Assembly (NCBI GenBank): GCA_964634595.1
Contig: CAZWKU010000001.1
Span: forward strand, 3,688-67,687
Direction of reading: 5' to 3'
DNA from: an uncultured Candidatus Saccharibacteria bacterium
GTDB lineage: Bacteria > Patescibacteriota > Minisyncoccia > Phycocordibacterales > Phycocordibacteraceae
Length of the DNA: 64,000 nt
Part shown: piece after piece, positions 11,172-47,851 of the stretch
How positions within the stretch are numbered: the stretch's first letter is position 1
Layout of the letters: each line of letters begins with the position of its first letter
The notes under the pieces: generated by a model
Told to the model about the DNA's origin: nothing
The model's input: the letters and a program-made list of their open reading frames with translations, nothing else
Databases searched by the model: none
Position numbers and translations under genes: made by a program

Positions 11172-11390
11172 GAAAAATATATTACCACGTGTCAGGGAGA
11201 GACATGGTCACGCATAAACACTGCTGTGTTTTGCGCGACCCCGGCTCGGCATCGCTTTGCGATATGCCTGCGCTATTCAAGTCTCTCACGCACCATGCGC
11301 AGGCATGGTGCTCCCCGGCACAGCGTTCACTTTGCTCACGTCTGTGCCGGGGGAGTTCGTCTTCGAAAGAACTTTATACAGACGCACTAG

Positions 11391-11473
11391 GACAGATACA
11401 GAATCGAAATGGTCAGAATTTTCCCGCGCGGCGGCTACCGCCGCGTAGAGGGGATGCGCCGTGCCAGAGACTT
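11391..11473. repeat. left arm of long inverted repeat (83-bp core, outer end GACAGATACAGAATCG)
   Basis: Reverse complement of 13478-13560 with 4 mismatches. Degenerate similarity continues inward to about 11555. Confidence 0.85.
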
Positions 11474-11644
11474 TAGTTCGAGAATACAAACCCAAACCCA
11501 AAGATTTTTTGAAGAAAAGAGAAGCGAATTTTTTGGCGGGGAGAGAGGGGAATACCTGAAGCCCGTAGTGTGCTTGCCCCACCCTCCGTGCGCGCACCAG
11601 CCCCTTCGCCGAGCTTTGGTTCTCGTCGAAGCTCCCTAAAATTT

Positions 11645-12181
11645 CTATCCTCTCTTTTTCCGACTGCCGTTACCTGCCTTTCTTTGGGCTTTCATTTGAG
11701 CGAGTATATTATCTCGTCGAATATCGGCGACATAATCAATTTCTGTTAAGGACGGGATACGGAAGCTCATCACCGTGCAATCATTGCGACTGGTGATCAC
11801 AAAGTCGCCGAGCGTGATGATGTCCATGCCGATAAGCACATCAATCGGGGAGTCGTCCCCCAAATTTCCTTCCGTTACCACTACATTCTGAACCATTACG
11901 TTGCTCGGCAGGGCGACGTTGACGAGATAGGTATCTTTGATGTCGCTACCATTTGCCGTGTTCACTTTCTTTTTGCCCGTGGGTTTCAAACCGAGATGGG
12001 CAACCACTTTAGGAGTGATGACCGAGCCGGTTGCGCCGGTATCCCAAATGCCCTTGAATGTCCCAATGACGAGATCTTTCTGATCTCGTATATCGCCTAA
12101 AAACGGCATGCAAATACCGACTTCACTTTGTAGAACGAGTAATTTCCCATTCTGGCCTCGTATTGTTAAGGCACTCGGCAT
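11645..12181 (-). CDS. retropepsin-like (clan AA) aspartic protease, module copy 1
   Basis: 178 aa. Active-site block KGIWDTGATGSVIT and a downstream hydrophobic-Gly motif (VLIGMDIITLGDFVI), typical of single-domain retropepsin-like proteases. Confidence 0.65.
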   Translation of the reverse strand: MPSALTIRGQNGKLLVLQSEVGICMPFLGDIRDQKDLVIGTFKGIWDTGATGSVITPKVVAHLGLKPTGKKKVNTANGSDIKDTYLVNVALPSNVMVQNVVVTEGNLGDDSPIDVLIGMDIITLGDFVITSRNDCTVMSFRIPSLTEIDYVADIRRDNILAQMKAQRKAGNGSRKKRG

Positions 12182-12190
12182 AGAAGGAAA

Positions 12191-12436
12191 TTAGATAGAC
12201 ACTCGAGAATAGAATGTCTGGGTGTAGTTTTCTGCTCCGGGCTCGACGCGCTGAATAAGGAATGTACCGAGCTCGTTATCTTTCTGCGCCCCCTCGTATG
12301 CCTCAATCTCTGAATCGTATGAGCCGATGACTTGCTGATTTTTTATCACCACAAATTTCCCTTCGTATTTCGCAACGAGTTCTTTTTGATGTGTGGTGTA
12401 GTATTCGAACTCCTTTGTGAGGGGGTCAGAAGCCAT
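12191..12436 (-). CDS. small partner protein of the aspartic-protease module (copy 1), hypothetical
   Basis: 81 aa, 10 nt upstream of and co-oriented with the protease. Homologous to 45809-46012 (KFVVIKNQQVIGSYD...TFLIQRVEPGAENY vs KWVALSKDNKKVIAYD...TFMKVPASDVY). Confidence 0.5.
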   Translation of the reverse strand: MASDPLTKEFEYYTTHQKELVAKYEGKFVVIKNQQVIGSYDSEIEAYEGAQKDNELGTFLIQRVEPGAENYTQTFYSRVSI

Positions 12437-12522: not shown

Positions 12523-13480
12523 ATGCGCGCAAAAGCGCGACAAGGGCATTTCCCCGGCACTGCGCCATTTGGGTATTTGAATAATCCAGCGACTAAAACT
12601 ATCGTGGTTGATCGCAAAAAAGCTCCTATCGTTAAAGCCGCCTTCGAGCTCTACTCTAAAAACGATTCGACCTTAGACGACATCTCTCAATTTCTTTTTA
12701 ACGGCGGCGTCAAAAGCTATGGCGGCTTTGCTCTCCATAAAAACCGCATCAAGTTCGTTCTCGCCAATCCATTTTATTATGGGCAGTTTTTGTATGGTGG
12801 TGAATTGTATGAAGGAAAGCATTTGCCACTCATCACCAAGGCTTTGTTCGATAAAGTGCAAAAGGTGATGCTTGAGCGAAGCCATCCGCAAGTCTTTAAA
12901 GTACAACCTCAAGCATTTTGCGGCCTCATGTTTTGTGGAGAGTGCGGTTTTATGATTACCGCCGAGAAACAAAAAGGGCATGTGTACTATCGCTGTACCA
13001 AAAAAGCGGCGCTTCGCTGTTCACAACGCTATACCCGTGAAGAACAACTCGCCGCCGATTTTTCCGACCTCATTAGTATGTTTGTCCTGTCCGAGAAATG
13101 GGCACGAGATTTTGAGCATCGTATGAAAATTGATAGTCGCGAGTCCGGTCGGACGACTGCCGAGGCAGTCGCAAGGTTCAGGAGTGAGATAGTGGAGATA
13201 GGCCAGAAGCTCGATCGTCTTATGGATCTCTATATTTCGCAGGATATTGAGCGCGACTTGTATTTGGCAAAACGTCGCGCGCTTATGTCCGACAAGCGGA
13301 CGAAGGAGGAGCAAATCTTGAGTTTGGAGAAGAACAGCTCTGCATGGCTCGAACCGATGTCCAGGTGGATAAATGAGGCAGAAAATCTAGCCCAAATACA
13401 AAATGCCCCCTCTCTCCCCGCCAAAAAATCCGCCCTTCAAAAAATCTTCGGCTCGAACCTGAAACTCCAAAACCAAAAAG
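12523..13480 (+). pseudogene. large serine recombinase remnant with the N-terminal resolvase catalytic domain missing
   Basis: Begins inside the alpha-E linker (RAKARQGHFPGTAPFGY), then the recombinase domain, a zinc ribbon (CGECG...YYRC...C) and a coiled coil. Only 86 bp lie upstream before the divergent gene, so there is no room for a catalytic domain. The listed ORF reads on through the repeat and tRNA by chance. Confidence 0.85.
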
Positions 13481-13560
13481 TCTCTGGCACGGCGCATCCA
13501 CTCTACGCGGCGGTAGCCGCCGCGCGGGAAAATCCCGACCATCTCGATTCTGTATCTGTC
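13478..13560. repeat. right arm of long inverted repeat, abutting the 3' end of tRNA-Leu(CAA)
   Basis: 95% identical (79/83) to the reverse complement of 11391-11473. Contains the hairpins CGCGGCGG-tag-CCGCCGCG and CGGGA-aaa-TCCCG. Confidence 0.85.
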
Positions 13561-13561
13561 G

Positions 13562-13645
13562 TGGTGCCGGGGGAGAGACTTGAACTCTCAAGACTTGCGT
13601 CGGTGGGTTTTGAATCCACTGCGTTTACCATTTCGCCACCCCGGC
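13562..13645 (-). tRNA. tRNA-Leu (anticodon CAA), class II
   Basis: Minus-strand sequence GCCGGGGTGGCGAAATGGTAAACGCAGTGGATTCAAAACCCAC...GAGAGTTCAAGTCTCTCCCCCGGCACCA. Anticodon loop UUCAAAA, long variable arm, T-arm GAGAG/TTCAAGT/CTCTC. Confidence 0.8.
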
Positions 13646-13732
13646 AATATGCATATCCTACGCCAAAAACGGCTTTTTGAGAATTGTGTGAGCCGTGCTA
13701 CCTTGCACCCAGATCGAACAAGGAGAACTGTT

Positions 13733-25313: not shown

Positions 25314-25405
25314 GCCAGGGTGATGGAATGGTAGACATAGAGGACTTAAAATCCTCCGAGGTCCTTAAAAGCCTCATGTGAGTTCGAGTCTCACCCCTGG
25401 TACCA
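25314..25405 (+). tRNA. tRNA-Leu (anticodon TAA), class II, CCA encoded
   Basis: GCCAGGG acceptor, anticodon stem GAGGA/TCCTC with loop CUUAAAA, long variable arm, T-arm GTGAG/TTCGAGT/CTCAC, ACCA end. Confidence 0.8.
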
Positions 25406-38637: not shown

Positions 38638-38732
38638 GGGAGGTTGGCAGAGAGGCTTAATGCACTCGTTTTCCAAACGAGCGGGTGACGATTAAAGAAA
38701 CCCCGCAGGTTCGAATCCTGTACCTCCCGCCA
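38638..38732 (+). tRNA. tRNA with a class-II (long variable arm) structure and G73, apparent anticodon UCC. Isotype unresolved.
   Basis: GGGAGGT acceptor pairs perfectly with ACCTCCC, then G, then CCA. 3-bp D-stem GCA/TGC. Anticodon stem CTCGT/ACGAG with loop UUUCCAA. 23-nt variable arm. T-arm GCAGG/TTCGAAT/CCTGT. Confidence 0.6.
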
Positions 38733-43702: not shown

Positions 43703-44722
43703 TCAAGACTCGAAAATCACCGTCTGATCAGGGAAAAAGTAGGTGCAGGCTGGAACTATAAATAGTACGGTTTTGTCCTTACACTCACCCGACTTTCTGA
43801 CAAAATTTCCGACCTGTTGATCTCCTCCAAAACCCATGAGTCCGGAGAGAAACGTCTGACGTTCTGTAGACGCATTAATACCATATTTCCTGAAGAAGTC
43901 TCGCGTCTCTTCAAAAAGTTTTTCTGTCCCTTTCTCATGCTCTGCTAAGTATTTGGTTTTGAGTCGAGCAATGTCAATCTGTTGTGTTTGAGTGAGAGGA
44001 GGTCTCGACCAGAGAAAATACTCGAGAAAATATCCATGCACAAAGTGTGTCCAATTTTCAGTAGAAAATGCTGCTCGGTACTCATCTGGCGTGCGATAGG
44101 TGGAAACGGGACCACTCCCTATTTGTGACGTTATGGGGAAATGATTAGCAATATATTTCTTAAACTCTGTACTCGCCGTAACCTCTGCCTCTTGCGTCGC
44201 AGTATACTCTTGCGGAGGCAAAAGTTTCATTGCAATAGTAGAGAAGTCTGGCAAAGTAACCCGAGATATTTGGGACACAACGAGTATGAGTCCTACACTA
44301 TAGAGAAGGATCACGACCACCAAAACACCGGCAGGTTTTATAAAGTCTACTAAAGCAAGAGGGCTTCGTACCAGATTGTTTGATTGGAAAAATTGATACC
44401 CTACTAAAAATACTGTCAGTATGCCTGCCCCAGCAAGAGTCCCAGAAATATAGACCGAGTGCAGGGAAAAAATACTGAGAAAACCATAAACAGCAAGTGT
44501 GGATAACAAATCACCGAAAGAAAATGAGCCGTTATAACTTCCTATCGTATATAATCTAATAAACACTCCGCAAACAATAAAAAAGAGAAGTGAGATGAAT
44601 GCCACCAAACGCTTCCGCTCCTGTGGAGCAAAGAAAATCAAGAGCAATGCATAAAGAAACGGCACCGCGAGAATGAGTAGTGGTTTTGCTGTTAAATAGA
44701 GTGTGCTTTCAGTAACAAACAT
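43703..44722 (-). CDS. polytopic membrane protein, hypothetical
   Basis: 339 aa with an N-terminal half of 6-7 TM helices and a soluble C-terminal domain. Confidence 0.4.
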   Translation of the reverse strand: MFVTESTLYLTAKPLLILAVPFLYALLLIFFAPQERKRLVAFISLLFFIVCGVFIRLYTIGSYNGSFSFGDLLSTLAVYGFLSIFSLHSVYISGTLAGAGILTVFLVGYQFFQSNNLVRSPLALVDFIKPAGVLVVVILLYSVGLILVVSQISRVTLPDFSTIAMKLLPPQEYTATQEAEVTASTEFKKYIANHFPITSQIGSGPVSTYRTPDEYRAAFSTENWTHFVHGYFLEYFLWSRPPLTQTQQIDIARLKTKYLAEHEKGTEKLFEETRDFFRKYGINASTERQTFLSGLMGFGGDQQVGNFVRKSGECKDKTVLFIVPACTYFFPDQTVIFES

Positions 44723-45360: not shown

Positions 45361-45798
45361 TCAGGCAAGCGAGAGATAGAAAGATTTTTTATGTCTCTCA
45401 AACCTAACATTAAAATTGAGAAAGAAGTCCTGCTGACCCAATATGATATCGAAATTTTTATGCAGATCTTGAATAAAGAGGGTTGAAAAGGTAAATACTT
45501 TATCGAATTCTTCAAACTGCAGATTTACCGGAGCAAGAAACCCTTCTTTCGGATATTCATCAATGCCCACAAGACGCCCCCTAGGTCGACCTTCGGTACT
45601 AACCTCCAGCAATTCTGCAATCGCCATATCCATAACAGTCACTTCAGTACCAGAATCAACCAGCGCTTTAAAACGGCGCGATTTTGTGTTGCTGCTCACC
45701 GCAACATCGATGAGCGGTCTGTAGCAGAAATCTAAAACACCCGCACGCACCTTGGATTGCACCGTATACGCATACCGTTTCTCTTCGTTATCGGTCAT
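45361..45798 (-). CDS. retropepsin-like (clan AA) aspartic protease, module copy 2
   Basis: FKALVDSGTEVTVM (D-S-G-T active-site block) and a later DIILGQQDFFLNF hydrophobic-Gly motif. 145 aa. Confidence 0.6.
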   Translation of the reverse strand: MTDNEEKRYAYTVQSKVRAGVLDFCYRPLIDVAVSSNTKSRRFKALVDSGTEVTVMDMAIAELLEVSTEGRPRGRLVGIDEYPKEGFLAPVNLQFEEFDKVFTFSTLFIQDLHKNFDIILGQQDFFLNFNVRFERHKKSFYLSLA

Positions 45799-45808
45799 GA
45801 CTGAGATT

Positions 45809-46012
45809 TCAGAATGTCAAATACACATCGGATGCGGGAACTTTCATGAAGGTGACATTTTGTCCCTGTACTTTTCTATCGAGCGCCAGCAAATTAGCAT
45901 CATAGGCAATGACTTTCTTGTTGTCTTTTGAGAGCGCAACCCATTTCTGCTCATGCTCTTTGTTCAGGACCTTACTTAAATCTATTGTGTTAAGCATAGG
46001 CCTATCATACAC
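45809..46012 (-). CDS. small partner protein of the aspartic-protease module (copy 2), hypothetical
   Basis: 67 aa, 10 nt upstream of the protease. Homologous to 12191-12436. Confidence 0.5.
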   Translation of the reverse strand: MYDRPMLNTIDLSKVLNKEHEQKWVALSKDNKKVIAYDANLLALDRKVQGQNVTFMKVPASDVYLTF

Positions 46013-46100: not shown

Positions 46101-46703
46101 ATGCAACGCTTGCCAGGTGGATTCGTGAAAGACCTTTTCACCCTGGCACTCCTTATTGTTCTCGTAGTCTTGCCTCTGCGACTGTTTGTCATCTCTCCCT
46201 TTGTGGTTGATGGCGAATCCATGCATCCCACATTTCAACACCTTGATTACCTGATCATTGACGAGATCTCGTATCGCTTTAAAGCGCCGGTACGGGGCGA
46301 CGTCATAGTCTTTCGCTATCCACTGAACCCTTCAACTTTTTACATCAAGCGCATTATAGGCCTCCCAGGCGAGACCGTCTCGATTACTCGCGGCAAAGTG
46401 AGTGTCAAAGGCCCCACGGGCACTACTGAGACGCTTACCGAGCCGTACGTCGCGACTGAAGACGCAACCTACACTAAAATCGTCGTGCTTGGCAGCGATG
46501 AATATTTCGTCATGGGCGACAACCGCCCTAATAGCTCTGATTCGCGCCGCTGGGGTGCCCTACCGCGAGAAAATATTGTGGGTAGGGCGCTTGTCCGACT
46601 TCTCCCCGTCACCAATGCAGGATTTTCACCTGGCGCAGGGGCGCCGATATTGAGCGCGAACCTCCCCTTCCCGGGCAGTGAGGTACTGCAACCAACCCTA
46701 TGA
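46101..46703 (+). CDS. lepB: signal peptidase I
   Basis: GESMHPT (catalytic Ser) and GDNRPNSSDSR. Confidence 0.9.
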   Translation: MQRLPGGFVKDLFTLALLIVLVVLPLRLFVISPFVVDGESMHPTFQHLDYLIIDEISYRFKAPVRGDVIVFRYPLNPSTFYIKRIIGLPGETVSITRGKVSVKGPTGTTETLTEPYVATEDATYTKIVVLGSDEYFVMGDNRPNSSDSRRWGALPRENIVGRALVRLLPVTNAGFSPGAGAPILSANLPFPGSEVLQPTL

Positions 46704-47851
46704 CCGAAACACCCCTGTCAGCTGAAGAAGTGTTGCGTCGTGCGCACGCCGTCGGCGACTACTACGGATTTGTTTCTTTCGCCGCGCTAGCACTTGCTGA
46801 ACGTGACAAGCGCGCAAATGTCCCGAAACAAGATCCGCCCCAACTCTCTGCGCTCGACAAGAATGCTGAGATCGTGGCAAATTTTCTTCGGCAGTGCCGC
46901 GATCTGGGGCTTTTCACTGTCCCTCGCCAACCGCTTTTTGTCTGGCACTCGAATATCGCTCCTGGGCGCCCAGCGCCCAAGGTCGCTCATATTCAATTTC
47001 ATGCTATTGGGAGCGACCGTGCACTTGCTGACGCGGTAGTGATACGCGCAATACGTGCGCTTGCTCACGACCTTACCAAGGGCGAGGTAACCCTGCGCAT
47101 CAATACGCTCGGGGACAAAGAGACTCGGGCGCGCTACATGCGCGAGCTTGGCAACTTCTTCAAAAAGAAAGGTGCGACGCTACCTGAGGATTGTCTTGCG
47201 GTTGCACGTCGCGACGTTTTCGAGGCGGCCGAGCTCGCGCTCGAGAAACGATATGTTGAAGACCTCCCTGCTCCCACCGAATTTCTATCCGATCAGAGTC
47301 GAAAGCGCTTCGAGGATGTGCTCGAGTATCTTGAGACCACTGACACGCCGTATGAACTCTCGGGCACTCTACTTTCACGTGGGGGCGCTTGGTCTGAAAC
47401 CTGTTTTTCATTTGCGACCGCTGACAAAACACTTGCGTGGGGCTCGCGCTATGGCGATCTTGCACGAGCATTTTTCAAGAGCCCGATGCCTTCGACCGGA
47501 GCGGTGCTCTCAATTGAAACAGAGGGTACAAAGATCTCACCGCTGTCGGCACCCAAAAGCCGTACAAAGTTGCAGTTCGCATTTGTGCACATCGGTGAAG
47601 AAGCGAAACGAGAGTCTCTGAAGATAGTAGAGGAGTTGCGCCACGCACGTCTCCCGCTCTGGCAAATTATAGGGCTTGAATCGCTTACTGAACAAATGCT
47701 CCACGTCGAGCGTCTTGCGCCTCCCTACCTTATCGTGATGGGCCGCAAAGAGGCATTGGAGCGCTCGGTAGTGCTTCGCAATCGCACCACGCAAGAAGAC
47801 ATCGTGATCCCACTCCCCAAGCTCTCCGAACGCCTCCGCACCTTTGCCTAA
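46700..47851 (+). CDS. histidyl-tRNA synthetase-like class II aaRS protein with divergent catalytic motifs (HisS or HisZ-like)
   Basis: QFHAIG (motif 2 end), TLRINTLGDKETRARYMRELGNFF (HisRS-specific block), AWGSRYGDL (motif 3-like), and a C-terminal anticodon-binding-like PYLIVMGRKEALERSVVLRNRTTQEDIVIPL. Confidence 0.5.
   Translation: MTETPLSAEEVLRRAHAVGDYYGFVSFAALALAERDKRANVPKQDPPQLSALDKNAEIVANFLRQCRDLGLFTVPRQPLFVWHSNIAPGRPAPKVAHIQFHAIGSDRALADAVVIRAIRALAHDLTKGEVTLRINTLGDKETRARYMRELGNFFKKKGATLPEDCLAVARRDVFEAAELALEKRYVEDLPAPTEFLSDQSRKRFEDVLEYLETTDTPYELSGTLLSRGGAWSETCFSFATADKTLAWGSRYGDLARAFFKSPMPSTGAVLSIETEGTKISPLSAPKSRTKLQFAFVHIGEEAKRESLKIVEELRHARLPLWQIIGLESLTEQMLHVERLAPPYLIVMGRKEALERSVVLRNRTTQEDIVIPLPKLSERLRTFA

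Follow-up and report, generated by a model that had tools for sequence, protein, structure and literature searches.

The 64,000-nucleotide stretch of DNA from an uncultured Candidatus Saccharibacteria bacterium analysed here (contig CAZWKU010000001.1, positions 3,688 to 67,687; hereafter the window) carries two copies of a unit in which a small partner gene lies directly upstream of a gene for a retropepsin-like aspartic protease. In the first copy the partner is a member of the family DUF5678. We find the linkage of the two genes to be almost obligate: 229 of the 231 assessable loci in three sequence collections have the partner upstream of the protease. Adjacent, co-directional and small, the two genes form an autonomous, mobile two-gene unit. 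The best available reading of this unit is a toxin-antitoxin-like or defence-like module, and we put at about 0.4 the probability that each pair is a self-contained, horizontally mobile toxin-antitoxin (TA) or abortive-infection module of two genes, with the partner restraining the protease.

The partner and protease genes and their linkage

Both genes of the first copy lie on the minus strand, where a preliminary description made from the sequence alone had placed them: the partner gene at 12436-12191, encoding 81 amino acids (aa), and the protease gene at 12181-11645, encoding 178 aa. They share one reading frame, and the stop codon of the partner is separated from the start codon of the protease by a spacer of 9 nt (12182-12190, read directly from the sequence) rather than the 10 nt given earlier. 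A word-indexed database search returned 1933 homologues of the protease and 341 of the partner, and with homologues this numerous we take both open reading frames (ORFs) to be real genes and not chance.

To follow the pair in other genomes we scanned three collections with the protease alignment and then sought the partner with a hidden Markov model (HMM) built from partner homologues. In species-representative genomes the partner was found directly upstream on the same strand at 80 of 80 loci. It was flagged there at 78 of 80 loci in IMG/VR viral contigs, where the two unflagged loci are one cut off by a contig end and one overlapping pair, giving 79 of 79 assessable; in metagenomes it was found at 70 of 72 assessable loci. 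The conserved small partner postulated in the preliminary description is borne out by these counts. About three quarters of the junctions in 80 loci fall between a 14-nt overlap and a 12-nt gap (heuristic start calls). No third gene is conserved with the pair, insofar as no neighbour cluster is common to more than 4 of 80 loci and no Pfam family, of the 219 represented among 146 immediate neighbours, is seen more than 3 times.

The unit is widespread. There are at least 505 confirmed loci in the species-representative genomes, a small fraction of the 185,579 representatives, together with 171 IMG/VR viral contigs and at least 556 metagenome loci that carry the module; neither protein has a match among the PLSDB plasmids. 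The statement that bacterial retropepsin-like proteins are rare finds no support in the species-representative loci or in the 1933 protease homologues. Carriers are spread in a patchy manner over Patescibacteria, Bacteroidota, Proteobacteria, Nitrospirota, Chloroflexota, Firmicutes, Spirochaetes and archaea, and those in culture include Variovorax paradoxus, Tenacibaculum adriaticum, Tamlana and Aquimarina. NCBI labels members of the two protein families "DUF5678 domain-containing protein" and "retropepsin-like aspartic protease", both of which are uncharacterised database entries, and the window copies are ordinary members of this uncharacterised family.

The protease of the first copy scores above the gathering cut-offs of Pfam PF13650 Asp_protease_2 (43.0 bits, cut-off 24.3) and PF13975 gag-asp_proteas (36.2 bits, cut-off 28.2), and below the cut-offs of the NCBIfam models TIGR02281 (clan_AA_DTGA; 19.7 bits, cut-off 57.95) and TIGR03698 (clan_AA_DTGF; 19.4 bits, cut-off 57.35). 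Of the families that had been suggested as a check, the two from Pfam thus recognise the protein and TIGR03698 does not; judged by these scores, it is a relative of TIGR02281 and TIGR03698 and a member of neither. Its catalytic motif is D47-T-G-A and its second motif L116-I-G-M-D, and the two sequence blocks cited for it earlier were located at residues 45-55 (IWDTGATGSVI) and 116-129 (LIGMDIITLGDFVI). An alignment of 31 homologues shows residues W46, D47, G49, A50, L116, G118, M119, D120, G125 and D126 to be invariant and T48 and I117 to be nearly so. Of the 80 protease homologues at the genome loci, all have an intact WD[TS]GA and 78 an intact GMD.

By structure comparison, the predicted fold of this protease matches ApRick and the proteases of equine infectious anaemia virus, Rous sarcoma virus and human immunodeficiency virus (HIV), followed by foamy-virus protease and the protease domain of Ddi1; a sequence search of solved structures returned only weak matches, to the foamy-virus and Ddi1 enzymes. 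The model places a helix at residues 119-122 after the second motif, and adds to the core an N-terminal strand pair, a C-terminal helix (150-167) and a basic tail. The single-domain retropepsin architecture claimed in the preliminary description is upheld by the conserved second motif and the predicted fold, and on its sequence and model we assign the protein as a single-domain retropepsin-like protease of clan AA. Because the motifs are intact across homologues and the predicted fold is that of a retropepsin, the enzyme is probably active. A reading of the sequence and of the secondary structure of the model, made without a dedicated predictor, showed neither a signal peptide nor a membrane helix, and the protein is therefore probably cytoplasmic.

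Of 80 protease homologues, 59 have a basic tail and 28 a tail with a SEC-C-like Cys motif. The SEC-C-type ending, CxCGSGKKYKxC[CH] (Pfam PF02810), is found within the C-terminal 25-40 residues of about one third of the homologues, and most of the others, including the window protein, have a Lys/Arg-rich tail. The two types of tail look interchangeable, which suggests that they share a targeting role.

The partner of the first copy matches PF18929 (DUF5678) at 27.4 bits (cut-off 23.2), and the same family was matched by 32 of 32 partner homologues; the partner family comprises 2511 representatives at 50% identity. The AlphaFold2 model (pLDDT 72) has a small alpha/beta core followed by a C-terminal tail with pLDDT below 50. 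This tail, NYTQTFYSRVSI, is conserved and predicted to be disordered, and in the alignment of homologues it is the most conserved segment of the protein, with the conserved sequence Y-T-Q-T-F-[H/Y]-S-R-V. Where a partner HMM match reaches the tail, it usually stops no more than about 2 residues from the C-terminus. Mean column identity over the partner alignment is 66%, and the invariant polar residues are E9, Q17, K27, K32, E45, K52, Q62, S77 and R78. The window protein is acidic, with an isoelectric point (pI) of 4.7. No solved structure, those of antitoxins included, is clearly related to its fold, and hhalign comparison with YefM of the Phd/YefM family gave no match (E 0.38). None of the top 150 partner representatives is fused to the protease; one protein of 181 aa (P0272) contains the whole partner domain tandemly duplicated within one polypeptide.

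Genomic settings of the pair

The first copy is the cargo of a mobile-element remnant, as the preliminary description had it, since the recombinase beside the pair has suffered a deletion and inverted repeats flank the cassette. A large serine recombinase remnant at 12523-13680 on the plus strand, transcribed divergently from the pair, retains PF07508 Recombinase and the PF13408 Zn-ribbon without the PF00239 resolvase domain. In a relative (L248, 88% identical) a full-length recombinase of 549 aa occupies the same position beside the pair; the window protein aligns to residues 159-538 of that enzyme and lacks residues ~30-158, and the first ~90 bases of the full-length gene are still present in the window DNA. 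Because the start of the gene has been kept and the remnant aligns to 159-538, we conclude that the catalytic domain was lost by internal deletion. The arms of the inverted repeat, identified by repeat search and alignment, lie at 11384-11550 (left) and 13407-13567 (right), measure ~165 nt each, and bracket a cassette of ~2.2 kb. The right arm ends at the 3' end of a tRNA-Leu(CAA) gene (13562-13645, minus strand). The 53-nt core of the repeat occurs only twice in the window, and an Rfam search of the inverted-repeat unit gave no family beyond tRNA. The arms also contain a GC-rich hairpin, GCGGCGG-TAGC-CGCCGC, and lie in opposite orientations, as would befit an invertible segment or a transposon-like element more than a classical integrated island.

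Viral contigs provide a second mobile setting. The neighbours of the pair in these contigs include tyrosine integrases at 13 loci, Bro-type antirepressors at 12 and CI/S24-type repressors at 8, and the pair sits in the accessory part of the lysogeny region. Among deposited phage genomes the full pair is present only in Leptospira LE1-like phages, whose annotation gives the partner-like gene as hypothetical and omits the protease ORF. In Leptospira phage LbrZ_5399 the unannotated retropepsin-like ORF of 183 aa lies at ~72855-73406 of KF114879.1 (2366-2917 of our locus L167), and its start overlaps, in ATGA, the stop codon of the annotated 80-aa partner-like gene.

When the viral contigs were searched from the partner side, 49 loci were found, of which 37 have the protease, 3 are cut off by a contig end and 9 are orphans, defined as partners with no protease-like DNA within 1.5 kb. 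The nine orphans are on IMG/VR contigs (loci L253, L262, L264, L270, L272, L276, L286, L294 and L298), and several of them retain the full YT(Q/E)T(F/Y)HS(R/Q)V tail.

The second pair in the window, at 45361-46012, has the same gene order, as reported at first. Its partner gene (46012-45809, minus strand) is an ORF of 67 aa from a GTG codon, of which the true product probably begins at an internal ATG (M6) and is about 62 aa long; the protease gene (45798-45361, minus strand) encodes a retropepsin-like protein of 145 aa, and the spacer between the two is 10 nt. The protease scores below the cut-off of PF13650 (19.1 bits, E 0.0022), a family that is matched by several of its homologues. There are 31 of these homologues, and the invariant motifs of this protease family are D48-S49-G50 and I-I-L-G-Q-x-D-F-F (I118-I119-L120-G121). 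The partner is at best a remote relative of DUF5678, with a sub-threshold score of 13.6 bits (E 0.062) and an E of 0.0037 in a homologue. A gene of 62-64 aa, 56-63% identical to the window partner, was located directly upstream of homologues of the second protease in 5 of 5 contexts, one of which has a full-length serine recombinase adjoining the pair; full-length large serine recombinases adjoin the pair in relatives of both subfamilies.

Pairwise comparison of the two copies gave no significant similarity, and they are only remotely related, with profile-comparison E values of 1.6e-4 for the proteases (hhalign) and 0.14 for the partners. What had been called a diverged paralog is for this reason assigned, from the sequence comparisons, to an ancient separate subfamily of the same architecture, and not to a recent duplication.

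The second copy is flanked by genes for peptidyl-tRNA hydrolase (pth) and signal peptidase (lepB). The only Pfam match of an adjoining 383-aa ORF (46700-47851) is to a C-terminal HGTP anticodon-binding domain, so that the ORF could encode a HisZ-like protein or a degenerate class II tRNA-synthetase paralogue. Just downstream of pth, which follows this copy, a 339-aa ORF (43703-44722) has several hydrophobic segments and no Pfam match. Elsewhere in the window, at 38638-38732 and 25314-25405, ARAGORN calls a 95-nt tRNA-Gly(TCC), unusually long for glycine, which may reflect an intron or insertion or else a mis-call.

Possible roles of the module

We favour the TA or abortive-infection reading because the pair is a self-contained unit with an apparently active protease, because it has hopped between lineages, and because it is carried by integrative elements and prophages. 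As is established, HIV-1 protease is toxic in E. coli. The charges of the two proteins are opposed, with a median pI of 5.6 for the partner and 9.1 for the protease, and the nine orphan partners on phage contigs are what would be expected of a phage-borne neutraliser. The near-obligate linkage, the close junctions, the lack of a conserved third gene, the patchy spread across domains and the presence of two modules in one window also speak for this reading, as do the weak matches of the two proteases to the PADLOC candidate models PDC-M08B and PDC-M52B.

In the mechanism we propose, the effector would be the product of the downstream gene, a cytoplasmic homodimeric retropepsin-like aspartic protease. 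The product of the small upstream gene, probably translationally coupled to it, would bind and restrain this protease, its C-terminal tail, disordered when alone, docking on the enzyme as an extended strand. The tail might act as a pseudo-substrate inside the active-site cleft, or it might mimic the interface strand of the protease (T-V-M-S-F-R-I-P). Loss, degradation or displacement of the partner, upon loss of the element or phage infection, would free the protease to cut cellular or phage proteins, and its tail, whether basic or of the SEC-C type with a zinc motif, may target it to ribosomes, nucleic acid or membrane. Both modes of docking are plausible in view of what is established about retropepsins. 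Peptides mimicking the interface strands block dimerisation of HIV protease, and the disordered inhibitor IA3 folds on binding yeast proteinase A.

Read by eye, the partner tail TQTF[HY]SR resembles the C-terminal interface strand VMSFRIP of the protease. Covariation between the proteins, computed as mutual information with average product correction, was unstable. Among 147 pairs the strongest signals joined the partner tail to protease residues 101-108, among 183 pairs they had shifted to the partner helix at 43-53, and the best values were only ~2x those of pairing shuffles.

Several findings weigh against the TA or abortive-infection reading. The charge pattern is reversed in the second copy, compared with the acidic partner and basic protease seen elsewhere. 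Defence genes are not clearly enriched near the loci. No Pfam DNA-binding family was matched by any of 32 partner members. The partner is more conserved than the protease, with a mean pairwise identity of 47.6% against 41.1%.

This last point is also an argument for the main alternative, itself doubtful, that the partner acts positively and not as an inhibitor, whether as substrate, pro-protein, adaptor, cofactor or assembly factor, and that the module is a device for regulated proteolysis rather than a TA pair. Such a partner would present the protease with a conserved cellular target or would itself be processed. The many invariant polar residues suggest that the partner has a conserved interaction of its own, the aromatic pair in its tail (F-H or F-Y) is like retropepsin cleavage sites as deduced from known retroviral sites, and a partner of this kind would be consistent with the orphans that lack a protease and with a protein that has no clear fold relative among antitoxins and no sequence match to Phd/YefM. 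Cleavage within the last 5-6 residues, however, would free only a tiny peptide, and the pair has no conserved third gene or pathway context. Its patchy, mobile spread and its location in the lysogeny regions of prophages are easier to reconcile with an accessory or selfish element than with a cellular pathway.

We consider it rather unlikely that the module is dedicated to anti-phage abortive infection, in which the complex would sense a phage product and the freed protease would kill the cell or destroy phage proteins. This explanation overlaps the TA or abortive-infection reading that we favour, differing from it in that stabilisation of a plasmid or element would not be the main role. It draws on matches of the first protease to PADLOC model PDC-M08B (E 8.6e-7) and of the second to PDC-M52B (E 1.1e-6), both being candidates from restriction-modification (R-M), BREX or DISARM loci, and on the location of the module in prophage accessory regions beside integrase and repressor genes. 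Methyltransferases, ResIII helicases and kinase-type defence proteins are neighbours at a few genome loci. Against this, the PDC matches are weak, the PDC systems are candidates only, and their A components do not match the partner. There are few PADLOC matches among the immediate neighbours, ordinary genes dominate the genome neighbourhoods, and the second copy lies between pth and lepB. Orphan partners on phage contigs could act as counter-defence genes, or could represent a partner with a function of its own.

Two further explanations can be given very little weight. The protease might be a lysogeny or mobile-element switch that, like ImmA of ICEBs1, cuts the repressor of its element for induction; the viral pair does often lie, like immA, between a CI/S24-type repressor and a tyrosine integrase, and serine recombinases adjoin it, but neither a repressor nor a recombinase lies near most of the 80 genome loci, the partner is far too conserved across phyla to follow fast-evolving element-specific repressors, S24 repressors cleave themselves, and ImmA is a metalloprotease. 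Equally improbable is a plain housekeeping function, in which the small protein would be a chaperone for the protease and the pair would serve neither selfish ends nor defence: many loci do lie amid housekeeping genes, the second copy among them, but the pair was found at 505 loci or more, a small share of the species representatives, is patchy across phyla, occurs in phages and has no conserved context.

A more specific form of the TA or abortive-infection reading, which we offer only tentatively, is that DUF5678 and retropepsin constitute the first aspartic-protease TA or abortive-infection family, spread over bacteria, archaea and temperate phages, with the protease neutralised by strand mimicry through the partner's C-terminus and with orphan copies in some phages serving as counter-defence. 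If the proposed mechanism is right, aspartic proteolysis by a retrovirus-type enzyme would be a new effector chemistry for prokaryotic TA and defence systems, DUF5678 would gain a function, and retropepsins would have a natural inhibitor protein, or strand mimic. The module also bears on the role that retropepsin-like domains had in prokaryotes before retroelements adopted them. Because it is compact (~0.8 kb) and found in cultured hosts (Variovorax paradoxus, Tenacibaculum adriaticum and the Leptospira phages), it is directly testable.

Relation to known systems

We know of no described TA family that has an aspartic protease as its effector, and a search of the available literature library found nothing on the DUF5678-retropepsin pair, on DUF5678/PF18929, on PDC-M08, or on an aspartic-protease TA or defence system. 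Among the closest known systems are the PADLOC entries PDC-M08 and PDC-M52, which are likewise two-gene cassettes with a retropepsin-like B component. No PDC-M08A or PDC-M52A model matches the window partners or any of 32 homologues. Both entries are phage-defence candidates embedded in R-M, BREX or DISARM loci, and neither is described in the text of the source paper (Payne et al. 2024, 10.1101/2024.01.29.577857).

Among single proteases, the model of the first window enzyme matches the fold of ApRick (APRc) of Rickettsia conorii (PDB 5c9b) at an identity of only 17%. APRc is membrane-anchored and, to our knowledge, has no partner gene, whereas the window protease looks soluble and adds the N-terminal strand pair, the C-terminal helix and the basic tail. 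RimB of the RimABK system has RimA and RimK as operon partners, and no DUF5678-type partner appears in the abstract of its description (PMC11957791). The Rlo enzymes of Pseudomonas aeruginosa are secreted or periplasmic, and the abstract of that report (PMC12239564) is likewise without such a partner.

The ImmR-ImmA-Int region of ICEBs1 and phage immunity regions resemble some of the prophage contigs, in which the protease gene lies between repressor and integrase genes. ImmA is a zinc metalloprotease, however, and most module loci have no repressor or integrase nearby. For the proposed interaction itself, yeast proteinase A with IA3 (PDB 1dp5) and the interface-strand peptides of HIV protease serve as a working analogy, in which an unstructured peptide or short protein becomes ordered on an aspartic protease and blocks its cleft or its dimerisation. 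There is no kinship in sequence or evolution; IA3 is helical when bound, its target enzyme is two-lobed and of the pepsin type, and the interaction in the window pair is a proposal only.

Type II TA systems offer the broadest comparison. The module differs from them in that the DUF5678 partner lacks a helix-turn-helix, ribbon-helix-helix, AbrB or Phd-type DNA-binding domain and is conserved beyond its effector. The two have in common a pair of small genes that run in the same direction, meet at a short or overlapping junction and have the smaller gene upstream; an absence of conserved neighbours, a patchy spread across phyla, the occurrence of several modules in one genome, and integrative elements and prophages as carriers; and an acidic partner, ending in a disordered C-terminal tail, combined with a basic effector.
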